This document shows positions 4,813 to 27,366 of a DNA stretch of 64,000 nucleotides, in pieces. The DNA comes from Candidatus Falkowbacteria bacterium. Its GTDB lineage: Bacteria; Patescibacteriota; Patescibacteriia; Patescibacteriales; GWE2-39-37. Each line of letters begins with the position of its first letter. The stretch's first letter is position 1. Under the pieces are notes generated by a model, which saw only the letters and a list, made by a program, of their open reading frames with translations, made no database searches and was not told the DNA's origin. The stretch lies in assembly GCA_013336275.1 (NCBI GenBank), contig JAAXUA010000001.1, forward strand, positions 14,167 to 78,166, in the 5' to 3' direction. Position numbers and translations under genes: made by a program.

Positions 4813-5877
4813 ATGGGGAAACATGAATTGAGAGACAGGGTGATAGGGATGTTCCTAGGAATCGCCATCGGCGATGCGCTCGGAATGCCGTTCGAGAAGG
4901 TTTTTACCCCGGCTGAGCTATTGGCGATGCCGGACGAAGTCTTCGCTGACTATCAGGATCCGCCGCCAGGACACAAGTTCCACGACGGTAAGCTCAAGGC
5001 CGGCGAGACGACCGATGATACGCAATTGTCGCTGGTCGTAGCCGAATCCTTGATCGCCTGCGGAAGGATCGACATGGATGACATGGCACGACGTCATGTC
5101 GAGGCCATGGATGATCGGGTTTCTGGCTGGGGCAAAGGCACGTTGACGGCAGTAGAACGTCTCAAGTCAGGCGTGTCCTGGCGCGAGTCCGGTATGCCGA
5201 CTAGCGGCAATGGCGTGATGATGAAAATATCACCGTTGGCTGCGATGTTCATCTTGCAGAAACAGCCGTTCAAGAACGGTCTAGGCCCTAAGCCGCACGT
5301 CAAGGCCGCAGCCTTGGCCAGCCGGACCACTGATGGATTATTCGATTTGGCACAGATGACTCACAAGACAAGGTTGGGTGTCGAACAGGGAATAATGCAA
5401 TTCAGTCTCGCATCGCTCTGTTTCGACTGGAGGAATGGCAACGGCTTCATTACGGAGTTCTTCAAGCGCGCGATCATGCTGAGCCTGCAGGTCGAGGCCA
5501 GAAGGGAGCATTTCGATTTCGACATCGACGCCGAGCCTGATCTTTCGAGAAGGATCATCAACTTGATGTGCGAAAAGCATCACCTGAAAGACCTTGCGTT
5601 CTTGGCGGATTATTACGGCGACAAGCCATTCTACGTCTATAATTCGCTACCGCTAACTTACGCCTGCTTCCTCAAGGACCACGACAGCTTCCAGGCTGTC
5701 ATCAACGCGATCCGGGTCGGCGGCGACACCGACACCAATGCCTCAATCGTCGGGGCCTTGCTTGGAGCCAAGAACGGCACTGCGGTCTTCCCGCAAACGC
5801 TCGTCGATGGCCTCAAGGAAAAAGACAAGATTCTCGATGTTGCGGAGCGATTTTGCGACAAATTCCTGCCACTATAA
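4813..5877 (+). CDS. ADP-ribosylglycohydrolase family protein
   Basis: N-terminal GIAIGDALGMPFE and C-terminal GGDTDTNASIVGALLGA motifs of the ARH/DraG family. SD GGGAGG upstream. Confidence 0.85.
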   Translation: MGKHELRDRVIGMFLGIAIGDALGMPFEKVFTPAELLAMPDEVFADYQDPPPGHKFHDGKLKAGETTDDTQLSLVVAESLIACGRIDMDDMARRHVEAMDDRVSGWGKGTLTAVERLKSGVSWRESGMPTSGNGVMMKISPLAAMFILQKQPFKNGLGPKPHVKAAALASRTTDGLFDLAQMTHKTRLGVEQGIMQFSLASLCFDWRNGNGFITEFFKRAIMLSLQVEARREHFDFDIDAEPDLSRRIINLMCEKHHLKDLAFLADYYGDKPFYVYNSLPLTYACFLKDHDSFQAVINAIRVGGDTDTNASIVGALLGAKNGTAVFPQTLVDGLKEKDKILDVAERFCDKFLPL

Positions 5878-5898
5878 CACTGAAAAGGAGAACGAATA

Positions 5899-8427: not shown

Positions 8428-9402
8428 ATGAAGAATCTGGAAAACGTAGTCATCTTTTCTACCAAGGCATCGCTGTATTTCGCTGAACTTATCGCCATGA
8501 GGCTCGGCCTCGAAGTCGGCAGCATCGAGCATAAGGATTTCGGCGGCGTTGAACAGTACTACCGCATCGGCATGGCCAACCGCGACGACCTCATCGGCAA
8601 GACCGCTATTTTCGTGGGCAGTACACATACGGATGACCAGGTCAACGAGCTTTATCGGGTCGGCAGCGCTCTCGCGGGTTATGGAACAGTCAGGCGGATC
8701 TTCGTCATCCCGTTTCTCGGCTATTCGACCATGGAACGGGCCAAATACCCGGGAGAGGTCGTGATGGCCAAGGTCATCGCACGCCAGCTCTCGAACATCC
8801 CGAATTCCGGGATGGGCAATGTTTTCCTGATGATGGATCTGCATGTCTCCGGCTTGGTACACTACTTCGAGGGAGATTGCCAGCGGTATGAGCTCTACGC
8901 CGAGAAACAGCTGACCATCGCGATGAGCGAGCTCAAGCTGGACAACTTCATGTTCGCTTCGGCGGATCTGGGGCGGCCGGCCTGGGTAGCGACTTTTGCC
9001 AAGCTCTTTCAGACCAGCTTCGCGCTGATAGACAAGGGCAGGGAATTCGATGAGACAGAAGTCCTGGCGGTGATCGGCGATGTCCGCGGCAAGAACGTCA
9101 TCATTTACGATGACATGACGCGGAGCGCCACCACCATCATCAATGCTGCCAATGCCTATATCGAGCATGGCGCTACCGGCGTCTATGCGGTCCTGAGCCA
9201 TTGCGCCTTGAACCACCCAAACATCATCGGCCATCTGATCAACTCACCCATCAAGAAGGTGATCACGACTAATACCCATCCAATATCCCAAGAAGTGGCC
9301 CACATCAGCAAGCTCCAGAGCCCACTCGCCGGCCGGTTCCAGGTCTGCGATGTCTCAGGCGAATTCGTCAGAACCATCCAGAAAGTCTTGAACAACAACT
9401 AG
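8428..9402 (+). CDS. Ribose-phosphate pyrophosphokinase homolog, divergent
   Basis: Prs-like over its full length (PFLGY, MDLH, DKGR, DD-loop). The canonical ARQDR is STMER here, and the DDxIDTGGT ribose-5-P loop is YDDMTRSATT. Confidence 0.75.
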   Translation: MKNLENVVIFSTKASLYFAELIAMRLGLEVGSIEHKDFGGVEQYYRIGMANRDDLIGKTAIFVGSTHTDDQVNELYRVGSALAGYGTVRRIFVIPFLGYSTMERAKYPGEVVMAKVIARQLSNIPNSGMGNVFLMMDLHVSGLVHYFEGDCQRYELYAEKQLTIAMSELKLDNFMFASADLGRPAWVATFAKLFQTSFALIDKGREFDETEVLAVIGDVRGKNVIIYDDMTRSATTIINAANAYIEHGATGVYAVLSHCALNHPNIIGHLINSPIKKVITTNTHPISQEVAHISKLQSPLAGRFQVCDVSGEFVRTIQKVLNNN

Positions 9403-21216: not shown

Positions 21217-23511
21217 GTGAGCAGACAGTATAAAAGAAGACGGATGCTAGCAACGCTTACGCGTTATTACTTAGCGCCGGGCTTGCAGTCGATCGATCAG
21301 CAATTCGTTGAGAAATTCAAGGATAATCCGAAACGACAGTCAAACGAAGCTAGCGAACTCGCCGGCCTAGCTTACCTGGCGTTCGTCGACCTTGACCCCA
21401 GAGCTGCCGAAGGCGCTATCGAACACTTCGTACGCTCAGGTAGGGCAGACTTTTTGGCCGAGCTTTATCGCTTAGCCAAGCTGCGCCGCCATTTCCGCTT
21501 GGTCTGGTTCGCCGGACAAGCGCTCGGTTTGGCTGACTGGCAGAGCGAGTTTACGGAATGGTTCAAGGATGAAGGCCTCTGGTGGTTCGATCTCTTCGAA
21601 GACCGCGGTACAGGTCATGGCTACATTCATCCGGACGACACCGCCCTTATCGGTCTGATTGTCCAGAAACTGGGACTTGGCGATTCTTTCTGGCAAGAAG
21701 TCAGGCGTCAAGCCGAGTCGCGCCAGGAAATACCGCTGTTGCGCCGCCGCCTGGTCAGCCTATTGGCTGGACGGGAGGAGCCGGCAATCCAGGAAGTCGG
21801 ACAGAAAGATGATCAAACAGACCGAACGTTCAGGCAGTTCTGCTCGGAACAAGGCATTCGCATCCTGCGTTGCCTGCAAACCGGCAGACGCGGCCTCAGC
21901 GCATGCAGCTGGGTCTATCAGGCGCTCGACAACGATGGCGTCATCAAGATTTTCAAGGAGGTGATCGAACCCGAAGGAAGGATGCCGCATTCCGAAAGCG
22001 AGGAAGCCGTTTACAGCAATCTGGGTGAGTGTGATTTCTTGCCCGAGCCGTATGAGACCGAAACAGTCAGCCAGAACTGCAATTTTTTGCGCCAGCCCTT
22101 CATCTATGGGCAGTCTCTTGCGCCCTTTGTTGCAGCCAAGCGCAAAATGAGTCTAGAACAGGCAAAAAAAATAATCAGTTCGGCCGCAGAGAAACTGGCT
22201 CAGCTCCACCGTTCAGGCGTTGCCCATCTGGATTTGCGCCCGGAACATATCATCGTTGCACCTGAAGGTCTGGCCATCCTCGATCTGGGCTTGTCACGCC
22301 TCGTGCCTGACCGATCAGCCATGGTCGATGTCGTCTTGCGTTCGCCGCGCTATGCCGCTCCAGAGATGGGGCTTCATGGGCAAGGTGGCTGCGCCACAGA
22401 CATCTTTCAGCTCGGCCTGGTCTTTTATGAGCTTCTCACCGGTCGCCACCCCTTCTGCCTTCATCGGAATCTTCCGGAAGGCGACGAGGATAAAGCTGGT
22501 GAAATCATCAAGTATTTGGTGCCAGCCATGGCGCTTGATTTCAAAGATGATTTAGCAAGGGTGTTTGATGATCCGCAACTGGATATCCTTCGGCAGATGT
22601 TAGACAAAGAACCCGGGAGACGTCCGACAGCAGAAGAAGTGGCTGAGGCTTTGCGAAGCAGTGAGGCCGTTGAATACGCGCCGATGCCGTTGGTTGAAGC
22701 CAGAGGCAATACGAAAGAGGCTAACACGGTCTTGTTTCCGGCGCGCATGTCCATTCCGCATCACGGCCACATCGAATATATCGCCCGCCTGGTGGAGCTC
22801 GGCTATTACGTCAAGATTTCGCTGCAGTGCAGCTATATCCTGACCGAGCACGACCCGGTTCCCAAATGGCTGACCATGAAGATGGTGGCTCAATCGCTCT
22901 TTGATCGGGGTATCAGTCGGGAAAATTTCGAGTTCGTTTTTACGCCGCTCTACGCGACGAGGCACGAATTAGACATACACTTCCGTATGATGCCCGGATG
23001 GGAAAACGTAATCGCAGTCGCCTCCGGCAATCCGGAGGTCCATGTCCTGTTTCCTGGCAAGCTGATTTTGGACCAGAAGTCCGTCTTCGGCCGAGAACAG
23101 GTACAGTATGAGAACCGCTCTTGGGGCGAGTCATTGCGCCAGAGCATCAGGGAGGGGGATCAAGCTGCCTTCAAGGAGCTTGCAGGCAGCGGCGTTGAAC
23201 GCATACTCAGTTTCAATGAGTTGCAACAATTCCTTAAGGTCAAACAGCCGATTCCTTTCGTCAGCAGCCGTGTCAGCGTCCATCTGGTGAATTCCAAAAG
23301 GGAAGCATTGGCCGCCACCCGATCATTCCGTTACCTTTCCCCGGAAGAAAGCCTGTGCCGCTGGTTTCATGGCATCGGCATTAAGGCGTCTGTCTTGGAC
23401 CCATATGCCAAGGAGACGACCCTGCTCATTAAAGGCAAGCTGATGCGCCTCAAGTATCGGCAAATAGAATTCGAGCACGGCAACGAAATTATCGTGTTCG
23501 AAAGCGCCTAA
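21217..23511 (+). CDS. Three-part protein: helical N-terminal region + Ser/Thr-kinase-like domain + C-terminal NadM-like nucleotidyltransferase
   Basis: GTG start after AAGGAGGTGA. Kinase: VIKIFKE, VAHLDLRPEHIIV, ILDLGLSR, PRYAAPE. C-terminus: ARMSIPHHGHIEYIARL and ESLRQSIREGD, alignable with GRFSPPHKGHIKAILGL and TDLRNAVLRGD of the nadM product. Confidence 0.75.
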   Translation: MSRQYKRRRMLATLTRYYLAPGLQSIDQQFVEKFKDNPKRQSNEASELAGLAYLAFVDLDPRAAEGAIEHFVRSGRADFLAELYRLAKLRRHFRLVWFAGQALGLADWQSEFTEWFKDEGLWWFDLFEDRGTGHGYIHPDDTALIGLIVQKLGLGDSFWQEVRRQAESRQEIPLLRRRLVSLLAGREEPAIQEVGQKDDQTDRTFRQFCSEQGIRILRCLQTGRRGLSACSWVYQALDNDGVIKIFKEVIEPEGRMPHSESEEAVYSNLGECDFLPEPYETETVSQNCNFLRQPFIYGQSLAPFVAAKRKMSLEQAKKIISSAAEKLAQLHRSGVAHLDLRPEHIIVAPEGLAILDLGLSRLVPDRSAMVDVVLRSPRYAAPEMGLHGQGGCATDIFQLGLVFYELLTGRHPFCLHRNLPEGDEDKAGEIIKYLVPAMALDFKDDLARVFDDPQLDILRQMLDKEPGRRPTAEEVAEALRSSEAVEYAPMPLVEARGNTKEANTVLFPARMSIPHHGHIEYIARLVELGYYVKISLQCSYILTEHDPVPKWLTMKMVAQSLFDRGISRENFEFVFTPLYATRHELDIHFRMMPGWENVIAVASGNPEVHVLFPGKLILDQKSVFGREQVQYENRSWGESLRQSIREGDQAAFKELAGSGVERILSFNELQQFLKVKQPIPFVSSRVSVHLVNSKREALAATRSFRYLSPEESLCRWFHGIGIKASVLDPYAKETTLLIKGKLMRLKYRQIEFEHGNEIIVFESA

Positions 23512-23533
23512 CCCTGGTTAGGCGCTTTTTTTT
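23503..23533 (+). terminator. Strong intrinsic terminator closing the long + strand block
   Basis: Stem AGCGCCTAA/TTAGGCGCT, loop CCCTGG, then a T8 run. It overlaps the stop codon. Confidence 0.85.
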
Positions 23534-23540
23534 GGCTAAG

Positions 23541-23568
23541 TGTAACAAAATGGCCGTTTTTACGTATT
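23541..23568 (+). promoter_or_regulatory. ECF-type promoter TGTAAC-N16-CGTATT
   Basis: It has the same architecture as the promoter in front of the ECF sigma gene (25943-25970). It resembles the SigW-class consensus TGAAAC-N16-CGTA. Confidence 0.5.
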
Positions 23569-23573
23569 ATTAT

Positions 23574-23702
23574 ATGAAACCTAAACATATGTATTGTTAC
23601 AAGCACACAATTTCATTCGCCCAGAACGGCGTCTCCCCAGTCGCCAACCGCCCCCTTGAATCGGAGAGCGAGTGTCTTATTGTGCTTAGATTGAATATTT
23701 GA
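23574..23702 (+). CDS. Possible leaderless small ORF (42 codons)
   Basis: ATG starts 5 nt after the CGTATT hexamer, the same geometry as the sigma gene. Product MKPKHMYCYKHTISFAQNGVSPVANRPLESESECLIVLRLNI. There is no homology support. Confidence 0.25.
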   Translation: MKPKHMYCYKHTISFAQNGVSPVANRPLESESECLIVLRLNI

Positions 23703-23727
23703 ACAACGTCAATATAGGTACAAAACG

Positions 23728-23762
23728 AAGGCTCGGTCCCATTCGGGGGCCGAGCCTTTTTC
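23728..23762 (+). terminator. Leader terminator/attenuator upstream of the MFS gene
   Basis: 13-bp stem AAGGCTCGGTCCC/GGGGCCGAGCCTT (one G-U pair), 5-nt loop, T5 run. It lies 34 nt before the MFS start. Confidence 0.7.
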
Positions 23763-23795
23763 GTACCTTAAAACCCCCAAAAAAGGAGAAAAGAC

Positions 23796-25010
23796 ATGAA
23801 AACCAAGAACATCGACCGCAGCTACCTGACAGTGAATTTCCTCATGGAATTGGCCCCGGCATTCTTTTACGCCACCTACCAGCTATTCCTCCTGTCCAAG
23901 GGTCTGGATTATCTCCAGATCAACTTGATCAACGCCTGCTTCATGGCTTCGCGTTTTGCGATGGAGATTCCGACCGGGGTCTTTGCGGACCTACTCGGAC
24001 GCAAACGATCGGTCCAGCTCGGACTGGCGGCGCTCAGTCTCTCGTTTTTCGCTTATTACCTGGCCGAGACTTTCTGGTATTTCATCTTAGCCGAAGTCAT
24101 CGGCGCTTTCGGCGGCACCTGCGTCTCCGGCGCCTTCAAGGCTTGGTTCGTAGATGAGCGCAAACTGGCAGGCGGAAACGGGGATAATGTCAAAGTCTTT
24201 GCCGTCGGCGGACAGTTCAAATACCTGGCCATGATTTTCGGCAGCGGAGTCGGCGCGCAGTTCGGCGCCAGAAACCTGGCATATCCCTGGCTGTTAAGTG
24301 CTGGTTTCATGGCGCTGGCCCTGGCAGTAGCAACAGTGCTGATGAAAGAGCGGCGCGAGCTGCAAAAGACGGGTAAGGCCATTTCCTTCAAGCCGATCGC
24401 CAAGATCGCCCGCGACAGCGTCGATTATGGGCTTAGGCACCGCGGCGTGATGCAGCTCGTCTACCTCAGCGCCATCATGGCTTTCGTAGCCATGCCCTTC
24501 AACATGATGTGGCCGGTTACCTTCAAAGGCTTCGGGATGTCGGTCAATCAGCTCGGCTTGGCTATGGCCGCTATCAGTGGCTGCCTATGGTTCGGAGCTT
24601 GGCTCGCACCGCACTTCAACCGCTCAATCAGGCAGGAGTTCCATGCCTTGGTTTTCTCGCAGATCTTGACGGCCTGCTCGATGCTGATTGCTTCGCTGAT
24701 GCTCGGCGGGCTGACAACCTTCATTTTTTTCCTAGCACACGAAGTCGGACGGGGCATGTTCGAGCCCTTGAATGACGCTCTGCTCAATCAGCAGATAGAG
24801 AATGACAGCTGTCGGGCAACGATTCTTTCCTTCGAATCAATGCTTGCGAACAGCGGAGCCGTTCTAGGATTGATCTGTTCCGGTTACGTAGCGAAATATC
24901 TGGGAATCGGTTCGGCCTGGCTTATGGCCGCCGTAGTGCTTGCAGCCGGGTTCACCCTAGTCTTTTCTCGCCGTAACGGCAGCTTCAGGGAGGGCAGACA
25001 ACCGACTTGA
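23796..25010 (+). CDS. MFS transporter
   Basis: Multi-TM protein with MFS motif A (GVFADLLGRKRS). SD AAAGGAGAA upstream. Confidence 0.85.
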   Translation: MKTKNIDRSYLTVNFLMELAPAFFYATYQLFLLSKGLDYLQINLINACFMASRFAMEIPTGVFADLLGRKRSVQLGLAALSLSFFAYYLAETFWYFILAEVIGAFGGTCVSGAFKAWFVDERKLAGGNGDNVKVFAVGGQFKYLAMIFGSGVGAQFGARNLAYPWLLSAGFMALALAVATVLMKERRELQKTGKAISFKPIAKIARDSVDYGLRHRGVMQLVYLSAIMAFVAMPFNMMWPVTFKGFGMSVNQLGLAMAAISGCLWFGAWLAPHFNRSIRQEFHALVFSQILTACSMLIASLMLGGLTTFIFFLAHEVGRGMFEPLNDALLNQQIENDSCRATILSFESMLANSGAVLGLICSGYVAKYLGIGSAWLMAAVVLAAGFTLVFSRRNGSFREGRQPT

Positions 25011-25063: not shown

Positions 25064-25092
25064 GGGCCTTAGTAAAATGAGGCCCTTTTTTT
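25064..25092 (+). terminator. Intrinsic terminator after the MFS gene
   Basis: Stem GGGCCT/AGGCCC, 10-nt loop, then T7. Confidence 0.65.
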
Positions 25093-25348
25093 ATTCCACC
25101 CACTCTTTGACATATTGAGCGACGCCGTTCTGTCTGAATTTGTGGCGCAGCTTGATTGCCGAGTTTAAATATTCGATCAATGAACCGGCCTCGATCTGGT
25201 AGCGGTTCTTGATTACGCGAAAGCGGAAGGCTTTGGCCTGGATGGCGCGGCGTATGGTTTTGCCGGTTACACCGCCGAATTTGGCGGCTTCGGAAACCGA
25301 TAACCAGAGCAGTGCAGGTTCGGGAGTTTTTTCTTTATTCTGGCTCAT
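25091..25348 (-). CDS. Small helix-turn-helix DNA-binding protein (excisionase/MerR-like HTH_17 type)
   Basis: LSVSEAAKFGGVTGKTIRRAIQAKAF HTH segment. The start was set at the internal MSQNKEK (25348). Confidence 0.7.
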   Translation of the reverse strand: MSQNKEKTPEPALLWLSVSEAAKFGGVTGKTIRRAIQAKAFRFRVIKNRYQIEAGSLIEYLNSAIKLRHKFRQNGVAQYVKEWVE

Positions 25349-25942
25349 GACTCGTAGATAAGTCCACAAATATGTAGACTTAAGTATGAATAATTTAAGC
25401 TATTTTCTGATTTTTTCGAATCAATCTCCCTCCTTTTTGAGTCAAAGTCCATGATATTATGGACATAAGTACCCCCATCTTGACACAACCATGCTAATAA
25501 ATCAATGGCAGGTGATGTTTAAGTCAGAAGCCCATTTGCGAGCAGGGTATGGCTAAAGGCTGGAACAAGTCTGTGTCACTCCTCCTACCCGCCGGCCGGC
25601 AGGCTTAGTCGCTGGATCAAGCGGGCTGTGTTAAATAGTTTCTCGCCTGCGAGGGCATAGCAGAAACGGCGGCTTTCCGGTCTCTGGACCTTGGGCATCA
25701 GGCTTGTGTTTGTTTGCCATTTGCCAGTAAACATGTTAATCTATTAACTATAATTGACGGCCAGAAACCAAGATGGCCGCTAATGACTCTTGCTGAACAG
25801 GAATCCCGCAAGAATAATTAGAAAAATTGGTCAGTAAGCTGAGACATTTGGCTCATTTTTTGTGTTCCGCGCAAAACAGGACAAATTTTATTGGCTAATT
25901 TTAGTTAAAAATAAATAAATAAAGTACTGTAACGAGAAGTAC

Positions 25943-25970
25943 TGTAACAAGGGTCCTGATATCACGTATA
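25943..25970 (+). promoter_or_regulatory. ECF-type autoregulatory promoter TGTAAC-N16-CGTATA
   Basis: The -35-like AAGTACTGTAAC is duplicated (25922-25933 and 25937-25948). CGTATA sits at 25965-25970, and ATG 25976 follows after 5 nt with no SD. Confidence 0.6.
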
Positions 25971-25975
25971 TTTAC

Positions 25976-26545
25976 ATGAAAGGTTTTTTTACAGAAAAAA
26001 TACTCTTTGCGAAACTTAAGAGTCAAGACCAGGAAGCGTTTCTCGAAGTCTATGACCGCTATGTGGACAAGGTTTACCGTTTCATCTATTTCAAGGTCAG
26101 TGACGCGGCCGAGGCCGAGGACCTAACCGCCGCGACCTTCTTAAAGACTTGGCAGCACATCCAGCAGAACAGCGTCACTGACGTCAAGACGCTGCCGGCC
26201 TTGGTCTACCGCATCGCCCGCAACGTCATCATTGATCACTACCGCCAGAATAATAAGTGCGACATCGTCTCGATTGAGACGCCGGAAGGCCAGTCGATAG
26301 TCGACGAGAAGCAGAACGTTTCCAAACAGGCTGAAATCTCTTCCGACCTCGAATTGATGAAGCAGACGATGGAACAGCTCAAGGATGAGTATCGCGAGAT
26401 CCTGGTCCTGCGCTACGTCAACGATCTGTCGATCGACGAGATCGCGGAAATCATCGGCAAGAGCAAAGGCAATGTCAGAGTCCTCATATATAGAGCGACC
26501 GCCGCCTTGAAAGAGCTGATGGGTGATAGCGTAGAACCGCGTTGA
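25976..26545 (+). CDS. ECF (group 4) sigma-70 family RNA polymerase sigma factor
   Basis: Region 2 (FLEVYDRYVDKVYRFIYFKV..AEDLTAATFLKTW) and region 4 (LSIDEIAEIIGKSKGNVRVLIYRATAALKE). Confidence 0.9.
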   Translation: MKGFFTEKILFAKLKSQDQEAFLEVYDRYVDKVYRFIYFKVSDAAEAEDLTAATFLKTWQHIQQNSVTDVKTLPALVYRIARNVIIDHYRQNNKCDIVSIETPEGQSIVDEKQNVSKQAEISSDLELMKQTMEQLKDEYREILVLRYVNDLSIDEIAEIIGKSKGNVRVLIYRATAALKELMGDSVEPR

Positions 26546-26577
26546 CATTAAATGGCAGTATTGAAAAAATTTCCATA

Positions 26578-27366
26578 ATGAAAACCATCGAGTCACAATT
26601 GAATAACCTCTCGAGCATCATCCCCTCGGCCGAATGGAAGGCCAGGACTCGTGATGTGCTTCAGAGCCAGATCTGCGCCGGCGCCCAAGAGGAGCGTGCC
26701 GGATTTTTTGCTGTCCTCGACAACCTGATGCCGGCCTGGGTTTCTGGCGTTGCCTCAAGACCGGTCGCCGTTTTTGCCATGATCGTTTTGGCCGTAGTGA
26801 CTGGATCATACGCTTCGGTCCGCGCCGCGCGCGAGACCACGCCGGGTGATTCGCTCTATATCGCTAAGATCATCAATGAGAAGACCCAGCTGGCGTTGAC
26901 CTTCGACGAGACCGACAAGACCAAGCTGAATCTGGAGTTCGCTACCAACCGCGCCGAGGAGCTGGTCAAGATGATGGAAGCGCCGACGCCGCAGCAGGAA
27001 AAGACGATCGCTGACTTAAAGACCAGCTTTTCCAGCGAATTGACCGCTGCCAAAAGCCGTTTGACCAAAATCAAGCAGAGCCAGCCAGTGGCAGTCGCAC
27101 CCAAGACCGACGCCGCTCCTAGCGATATCAAGCAGTCCGTACCAAATGATGAGAAGGTCCAAGTCTTCGGAGCTAATCTGGGCAAGGACAATGTCAGCAT
27201 GCAGATAATCGAAGCTGAGCAGCTGTTCGCTAATAAGGATATTTCCGGCACCATCGAGAAGATCGATCAGGCCGCCAAATCCTTGGACGCTAAGCCGGCC
27301 GAAACCAAAGCCACGACTACGCCTAAGGAAGAAAAGGAAACAGAGAAGGCAACGTCGACAAAATAG
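26578..27366 (+). CDS. Single-pass membrane protein following the sigma gene (putative anti-sigma/partner)
   Basis: One TM segment (RPVAVFAMIVLAVVTGSYASV) and a helical extracytoplasmic part. It is adjacent to the sigma gene. The function is inferred from position only. Confidence 0.55.
   Translation: MKTIESQLNNLSSIIPSAEWKARTRDVLQSQICAGAQEERAGFFAVLDNLMPAWVSGVASRPVAVFAMIVLAVVTGSYASVRAARETTPGDSLYIAKIINEKTQLALTFDETDKTKLNLEFATNRAEELVKMMEAPTPQQEKTIADLKTSFSSELTAAKSRLTKIKQSQPVAVAPKTDAAPSDIKQSVPNDEKVQVFGANLGKDNVSMQIIEAEQLFANKDISGTIEKIDQAAKSLDAKPAETKATTTPKEEKETEKATSTK

Follow-up and report, generated by a model that had tools for sequence, protein, structure and literature searches.

Positions 23541-23795 of the window, the 64,000-nucleotide (nt) stretch of Candidatus Falkowbacteria DNA that was analysed, probably constitute the promoter and leader of the adjacent major facilitator superfamily (MFS) transporter gene and are likely to work as a ribosome-dependent transcription attenuator. 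The leader displays an open reading frame (ORF) under selection, an intrinsic terminator, an antiterminator that is mutually exclusive with the terminator, and a helix between segments 1 and 2 with its 5′ strand inside the ORF, which are the hallmarks of attenuators. The three predicted helices are laid out as the 1:2, 2:3 and 3:4 pairings of a ribosome-dependent attenuator. A sequence-only reading of this DNA had put forward a termination-based leader, of riboswitch or attenuator type, that controls the transporter, and the attenuator form of that proposal is supported by the upstream ORF (uORF), the antiterminator and the terminator. The elements of the leader and of the regulated gene are as follows.

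23541-23568, + strand: promoter of the leader, of the extracytoplasmic function (ECF) type, with -35 TGTAAC at 23541-23546, a 16-nt spacer and -10 CGTATT at 23563-23568
23574-23576, + strand: first ATG, close to or at the predicted start of transcription, not conserved as an ORF start
23589-23702, + strand: conserved uORF (leader peptide) of 37 codons, MYCYKHTISFAQNGVSPVANRPLESESECLIVLRLNI, open in 29/29 leaders, with no Shine-Dalgarno (SD) sequence
23601-23620, + strand: segment 1, the 5′ strand of helix P1 (AAGCACA ... CAUUCGC), uORF codons 5-11, from folding
23628-23664, + strand: two small hairpins inside P1 (23628-23645 and 23648-23664), with a C-G to U-A change in locus L002
23658-23694, + strand: segment 2, comprising the P1 3′ strand (23668-23674 and 23681-23687) and the antiterminator 5′ strand, wholly within the uORF
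23709-23744, + strand: segment 3, the antiterminator 3′ strand, including the terminator 5′ arm and loop, from folds of truncated transcripts
23716-23768, + strand: intrinsic terminator (segments 3:4), with core stem 23727-23740/23746-23759, U-tract 23757-23761 and outer stem AGGUAC/GUACCU
23783-23788, + strand: SD sequence AAGGAG of the transporter gene
23796-25010, + strand: MFS transporter of 404 amino acids, the regulated gene (Pfam MFS_1)

Twenty-nine homologous leaders were recovered, all of them in front of relatives of the window MFS protein (34-100% amino acid identity). The window MFS protein itself is 100% identical to an NCBI entry from Candidatus Falkowbacteria, a group of the Patescibacteria/CPR. 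The relatives were all fetched through the MFS protein, and the collection therefore covers leaders adjacent to MFS genes. The relatives comprise a syntenic genome locus that was the sole locus from a scan of genome contigs (L001), eight loci obtained by exact-protein look-ups (L002-L009), and thirty loci from a metagenome scan with the MFS alignment (L010-L039). Many of the MFS relatives and their leaders reside in unrelated gene neighborhoods. Four features are common to the 29 leaders: an open frame, P1 within that frame, an intrinsic terminator, and an alternative helix between the P1 3′ strand and the terminator 5′ arm. Between the window and L001, identity is 96% in the leader core (23600-23727) and 100% in the terminator (23728-23767), compared to 66% for the flanking upstream coding sequence and 77% for the MFS coding sequence. 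The L001 contig (CAYUCS010000002.1) is titled 'uncultured Gammaproteobacteria bacterium', yet is syntenic with the Falkowbacteria window at 66-86% DNA identity, and the label of this metagenome-assembled genome is probably wrong.

The uORF begins with the second ATG (23589; context AUAUG), terminates with the stop codon at 23700-23702, and ranges from 36 to 56 codons across the 29 leaders. No in-frame stop interrupts this frame in any leader, compared to 105 and 108 stops in the other two frames. Openness was the criterion by which the frame was picked, and the probability that it would be open in shuffled sequence was 0.008-0.21 per locus. Even allowing for this selection, chance cannot explain why the predicted frame recurs at one position in at least 15 diverged lineages. 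The uORF peptide is poorly conserved, and the residue at the RNA-paired codon varies between His, Arg, Cys and Tyr as pairing dictates. This pattern points to selection on translation of the frame, and not on a particular protein. Searching Pfam with the 42-residue peptide returned no match. A pure non-coding RNA had been suggested by the 96-100% identity between the window and L001, in which only non-synonymous differences occur, and was dropped when diverged leaders proved to share the open frame.

The possibility raised by the sequence-only reading of a leaderless 42-codon ORF (23574-23702) was not supported. The ORF is present in the window, whereas its start codon is not maintained as such in relatives: the first ATG there runs directly into a stop codon (ATG-TAA in L001 and L019, ATG-TAG in L002, ATG-TGA in L007), is out of frame (L004, L005), opens just five codons (L006), or is absent. 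The bare start-stop pairs are located at the predicted transcript start (L001, 5782-5787; L019, 1017-1022; L002, 1859-1864; L007, ~592-597). The five-codon mini-ORF of L006 ends in ATGA and overlaps the start of the uORF.

Minimum-energy folds of all leaders conformed to one plan in which P1 encloses two hairpins within the uORF and is followed by the intrinsic terminator. In the window, P1 is formed by the pairs 23601-23607/23681-23687 and 23614-23620/23668-23674. Predicted energies for the window are about -25 kcal/mol for the P1 domain, -22 kcal/mol for the antiterminator region and -34 kcal/mol for the extended terminator hairpin. Eleven pairs make up P1 in a subfamily that carries a sigma-70 promoter, and three of these show compensatory double changes (UA/CG, CG/UA and AU/GC). 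The sequence of the hairpins that P1 encloses is not conserved between subfamilies.

When transcripts were cut before the terminator 3′ arm, the antiterminator was predicted in nearly all leaders. It consists of the P1 3′ strand and the bases immediately 5′ of that strand, paired with the terminator 5′ arm and its upstream flank. The duplex of segments 2 and 3 covers the entire terminator 5′ arm, and segment 2 is always inside the uORF. Assessed against shuffles, this duplex gave z < -2 in 29/29 leaders with a mean of -4.1 and a value of -3.9 for the window. In a first alignment, 96.0% of the cells were paired compared to 34-61% in slid registers, with eight compensatory cells (0/500 shuffles), and in a second alignment the corresponding values were 91.6% and 35-43%, with ten compensatory cells in five pairs (0/500 shuffles). 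As one of the covarying partners is in the terminator loop, the terminator cannot account for that covariation. A more restricted version, in which segments 2 and 3 pair only through the outer terminator stem, was ruled out by the truncated-transcript folding that takes in the whole 5′ arm.

The terminator itself is present in 29/29 leaders. In the window, its arms are AAGGCUCGGUCCC (23728-23740) and GGGGCCGAGCCUU, succeeded by TTTTT to 23761, in agreement with the 13-base-pair stem and T5 tract that had been noted at 23728-23762. The terminated fold was 84.6% paired compared to 38-45% in slid registers, and six terminator pairs exhibit compensatory changes. A generic terminator scan found about as many terminator-like sites in the region as expected (7 versus 6.0) and scored just the inner five pairs of the leader hairpin. 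Thus, it is the folding and the compensatory changes in relatives that vouch for the terminator. In L036 (~2870-2900) and L037 (~1015-1045) the terminator 3′ arm is remodelled (GUCGGGGUUGUU instead of AGCCGAG) and the 5′ arm CUCGGCU is invariant, which fits a requirement for the 5′ arm to pair with segment 2 as well.

A multi-stem domain closed by a covarying helix and followed by an antiterminator/terminator platform is also the standard layout of a riboswitch, and nucleotide conservation within the subfamily of the window is very high. In such a case the three-way domain closed by P1 (23601-23687) would be an aptamer whose ligand stabilizes P1 and favors termination, and it would be fortuitous that the frame is open. 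A fortuitous frame would not remain uninterrupted in 29/29 diverged leaders when each of the other two carries ~3.7 stops. Moreover, comparison between subfamilies (ten sequences) leaves hardly any invariant columns in the region that P1 encloses and segments 1, 2 and 3 are conserved, which is the opposite of the pattern expected of an aptamer core. The Rfam scan that had been recommended for this RNA was performed: with Rfam 15 at the gathering score there was no match in the window and 20 related loci, and at E < 10 the leader produced chance-level matches only. With neither an Rfam match nor a conserved core in the P1 domain, the riboswitch alternative is very improbable.

An independent small-protein gene or an ECF-dependent small RNA, with the MFS gene expressed only by unregulated leak-through, would account for the dedicated promoter and strong terminator and for the designation of the frame as 'hypothetical protein' by some annotation pipelines. 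Furthermore, terminated attenuator RNAs are known to act in trans, as in the case of rnTrpL. However, the element was found only directly upstream of the MFS family, in unrelated neighborhoods, in a collection in which stand-alone copies were not searched for. Nor would a gene of this kind have a reason to conserve an antiterminator that overlaps the terminator 5′ arm, or to encode a poorly conserved peptide in which the amino acids at covarying codons follow RNA pairing. An independent gene is therefore unlikely. Similarly improbable is a composite arrangement in which a domain in the uORF binds a small molecule or protein, making a riboswitch-attenuator hybrid, or in which the ~190-nt terminated transcript is an ECF-dependent RNA with a second function in trans. 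If true, such a hybrid or trans-acting RNA would amount to a class of regulator that is new and confined to Patescibacteria.

The attenuator would operate through alternative pairing of the segments. Transcription is predicted to start at ~23574 from the ECF sigma-type promoter and to give a leader of ~190 nt. In the off state, segment 1 (23601-23620) would pair with segment 2 (23668-23687) as P1, leaving the terminator (23716-23768) free to form and to halt transcription 34 nt before the MFS gene. In the on state, segment 1 would be covered by a ribosome that has slowed or stalled within the 5′ half of the uORF, and the liberated segment 2 would pair with segment 3 (23709-23744), capturing the terminator 5′ arm so that the polymerase enters the MFS gene. 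If no ribosome were present, P1 would form first and then the terminator. A ribosome that reaches the stop codon at 23700-23702 would cover segment 2, whereupon the terminator would form again. Three parts of this scheme are inferred: that the sigma factor is required, that the uORF is translated, and that the switch works in the stated direction.

The flanks of the leader are consistent with this arrangement. The gene upstream possesses its own terminator, which isolates the leader as a separate transcription unit:

23500-23537, + strand: intrinsic terminator of the upstream kinase-domain gene, a 13-pair hairpin with T8, kept in L001, L002, L004 and L005

At the other end, the MFS gene with its SD sequence starts 34 nt past the terminator (ATG at 23796), as had been noted, and this distance leaves no room for a separate MFS promoter. 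The combination of an upstream terminator and no space for another promoter suggests that the transporter would be made only when the ECF sigma factor is active and translation is slowed.

Certain points weigh against the attenuator interpretation. An SD-like 4-mer is missing before the uORF in 27/29 leaders, whereas one is present before the MFS gene in 23/29, and efficient initiation on the uORF is thus an assumption. The strands of P1 in the window are near-invariant in their own subfamily, and covariation in P1 comes mainly from the sigma-70 subfamily. The shuffle controls for the pair counts leave phylogenetic relatedness in the data. The model assigns no function to the two hairpins that P1 encloses. 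An alternative reading of the promoter motif is as a weak sigma-70 promoter, GTAACA-N17-TATTAT, matching at 9/12 positions. Drug efflux is only weakly indicated (68 bits compared to an 800-bit cut-off). More generally, the model derives from sequence and predicted folding, and the steps of the mechanism are deduced from anatomy.

The promoter of the leader recurs in front of a sigma factor gene situated 2 kb downstream. The relevant features are as follows.

25943-25970, + strand: ECF-type promoter of the sigma gene itself, TGTAAC-N16-CGTATA, kept in L001, L004 and L005
25976-26545, + strand: ECF sigma factor gene, 189 amino acids (Pfam Sigma70_r2/r4_2)
26542-27366, + strand: gene for a DUF5667 protein, a putative anti-sigma factor, overlapping the end of the sigma gene

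The pattern TGTAAC-N15-18-CGTA has just two matches in the 64-kb window (23541 and 25943), both on the + strand, compared to 0.12 expected, and two matches were reached in 0/100 shuffles of the window. The proposal of a second ECF-type promoter at 23541-23568 that mirrors the promoter of the sigma gene is thus substantiated, as are the positions of the two ATG codons that begin 5 nt after the -10 hexamers. ECF promoters typically contain AAC in the -35 element and CGT(A) in the -10 element separated by 14-17 base pairs, and autoregulation is common (PMC5758882). The leader promoter has AAC in the -35 element, CGT in the -10 element and ECF spacing. The product of the sigma gene 2 kb downstream, which scores below the cut-off of every named NCBIfam ECF family, presumably recognizes this promoter.

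The fetched loci (282 kb) contain 26 copies of the promoter motif. Eighteen precede the leader-MFS unit (17 distinct sequences) with invariant hexamers and variable spacers, and four precede sigma genes, always in the form CGTATATTTA[A/C]ATG. Two are placed before an exporter with ABC_membrane and ABC_tran domains, in divergent orientation (L010, L011), and one is elsewhere. The sequence-only reading held that absence of the motif from orthologous loci would count against it. Instead, the motif is found before the leader in 18 fetched loci and before the sigma gene in 3/3 fetched loci that include this gene (L001, L004, L005), in which the hexamers of both promoters are invariant and the spacers have diverged. 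In one branch of the family (L012, L014, L017, L022, L024, L025, L027, L036, L037 and L039), a clean sigma-70 promoter, TTGACA-N17/18-TAAAAT, is instead located ~60 nt before the uORF, and the uORF, P1, antiterminator and terminator are retained. Thus, the leader is the constant part of the element and the type of promoter is lineage-specific.

Further observations were made around these promoters. The sigma ATG is 5 nt past CGTATA in 4/4 loci (window, 25963-25978; L001, ~9010-9025; L004, ~8363; L005, ~6815), which share the sequence CGTATATTTA[A/C]ATGAAAGG at the sigma start, and this suggests that the sigma mRNA may be leaderless and devoid of an SD sequence. A 15-nt tandem duplication in the window at 25923-25948 (AGTACTGTAAC...AGTACTGTAAC), the extra copy of which is not in L001, creates a second TGTAAC (25928-25933) 15 nt upstream of the -35 element of the sigma promoter. 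The ~570 nt between an HTH_17 gene (25091-25369, - strand) and the sigma promoter (25370-25940) are without a long ORF; two parts of this interval (25370-25507 and 25711-25940) have ~82% identity to L001, and the interval gave no Rfam match. In L010 (2400-2470, - strand) and L011 (~1040-1092, - strand) the second ECF-type promoter is back to back with the leader promoter. The exporter served by this promoter in L010 is a protein of 595 amino acids (606-2393, - strand) with a short 5′ untranslated region in which a GC hairpin is followed by a U-run (GAGAGCCGGUGGCUCUAAAUUUUUG), possibly another attenuator.

The best NCBIfam matches of the MFS transporter were Tet(40), the HP1165 efflux family, TetA(P), Tet(A/B/C) and Mef(A), all far below their cut-offs (Tet(40), 68 bits compared to 800; Mef(A), 25 compared to 675). 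The protein accordingly bears only a weak resemblance to tetracycline and macrolide efflux pumps. A search of PDB sequences with the MFS protein found no match. The transporter had also been considered as a possible NiaP-type niacin importer. No NiaP signal emerged in Pfam or NCBIfam searches, the best matches were to efflux families, and the MFS-leader pair occurs in unrelated neighborhoods with no constant link to nicotinamide adenine dinucleotide (NAD) genes, all of which speak against that role.

As the nearest named relatives of the pump are tetracycline and macrolide efflux proteins, translation inhibitors seem the likeliest inducers of the attenuator, although this assignment of the signal is a guess. 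Together with the occurrence of the same motif before an ABC exporter in L010 and L011, the efflux-type matches favor an export or defence regulon that translation-inhibiting compounds would induce, which is likewise a guess.

The same attenuator could respond instead to a shortage of a particular charged tRNA, for example that for Asn or His, with the transporter acting as a nutrient importer. Within the first 19 uORF codons of 21 non-redundant leaders, Asn accounts for 16.8% and His for 5.8% of residues compared to 3.3% and 1.9%, respectively, in the MFS proteins. These values are ~5-fold and ~3-fold the shares in the adjacent MFS proteins, although membrane proteins are a poor background for such a comparison. 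Patescibacteria are described as reliant on imported building blocks, and the whiB7 uORF attenuator is reported to answer amino-acid starvation in addition to antibiotics (PMC10274678). Conversely, the Asn/Lys-rich codons occupy the same place as the A-rich 5′ strand of P1 (AAAAACC), and RNA constraint can explain them. The window subfamily contains just two Asn in 37 codons, and there is no conserved run of a single codon. A signal of this type, with an importer as the regulated gene, is considered unlikely. Tyr, His and Asn codons were also contemplated as a sign of queuosine-dependent decoding; this was left as speculation as RNA constraint explains the composition.

Among characterized systems, the bmrB-bmrCD region of Bacillus subtilis provides a parallel to the attenuator proposed here. 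Expression of this multidrug ABC exporter is controlled by ribosome-mediated transcription attenuation in which read-through requires translation of the bmrB ORF and is raised by drugs that target the ribosome (PMC4191407). Both leaders have a long ORF with alternative stem-loops (53 amino acids in bmrB; 36-56 codons here) and a terminator before the exporter gene, and both appear to have a second control at the promoter, by AbrB in B. subtilis and putatively by an ECF sigma factor here. The two differ in that they share no sequence similarity, the transporter is of the MFS and not the ABC type, the promoter here is ECF-type, and the terminator is 19-52 nt past the uORF stop instead of inside bmrB. 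Moreover, the present leader is known from sequence alone. The mef(E)/mel system of Streptococcus pneumoniae similarly couples attenuation, a leader peptide and a Rho-independent terminator to an MFS efflux pump, and its leader is conserved together with the pump gene (PMC4335068). In contrast, that system has an 8-residue peptide and a 327-nt leader with four stem-loops, is macrolide-specific and is carried on mobile elements (PMC4335068), and the Mef(A) model matches the window protein at 25 bits only.

The trp-type and whiB7 attenuators and the ilvB-II motif (PMC10272879) follow the same three-helix logic, in which it depends on where the ribosome stands on segment 1 whether the antiterminator or the terminator forms. 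The ilvB-II motif was likewise first flagged as a candidate structured RNA (PMC10272879). Unlike these attenuators, the leader described here has no run of regulatory codons, its longer uORF also covers segment 2, and it precedes a transporter gene and not a biosynthetic operon. The promoters resemble the autoregulated promoters of the sigW, sigX and sigM kind (PMC5758882) in the AAC of the -35 element, the CGT(A) of the -10 element, a spacer within 14-17 base pairs and the presence of the motif before the sigma gene. They differ in that the sigma factor here falls below every named NCBIfam ECF cut-off, its partner is a DUF5667 protein, and its role at the promoter is deduced.

The neighborhood of the leader includes, upstream, a protein of 764 amino acids (21217-23511) with a Ser/Thr kinase domain at residues 244-476. 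Residues 502-764 had no Pfam match at E < 0.1, and the C-terminal part includes an HxGH-like motif, IPHHGHIEY. The label 'NAD block' that had been attached to this neighborhood could not be confirmed, given the lack of a Pfam domain in residues 502-764. In L022, a bacterial RNase P RNA of class A (128 bits) is located at 5190-5879, ~1 kb downstream of the MFS gene.

Overall, the kind of element is well known, whereas the leader family itself is uncatalogued and is not in Rfam 15, to which it could be added. None of the papers that were searched links Patescibacteria with attenuation. The leader also offers a warning for annotation: some pipelines take it for a small gene, and in a conservation scan it resembles a structured non-coding RNA, but it is best read as an attenuator. 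Patescibacteria have tiny genomes with few recognised regulators, and their gene control is almost unstudied experimentally. The leader family represents a cis-regulatory device, conserved across many lineages of these bacteria, that appears to join an ECF sigma factor and ribosome speed in the control of a pump-like transporter. It thereby provides a testable handle on how Patescibacteria may respond to translation stress or to the antibiotics of their hosts and neighbors.

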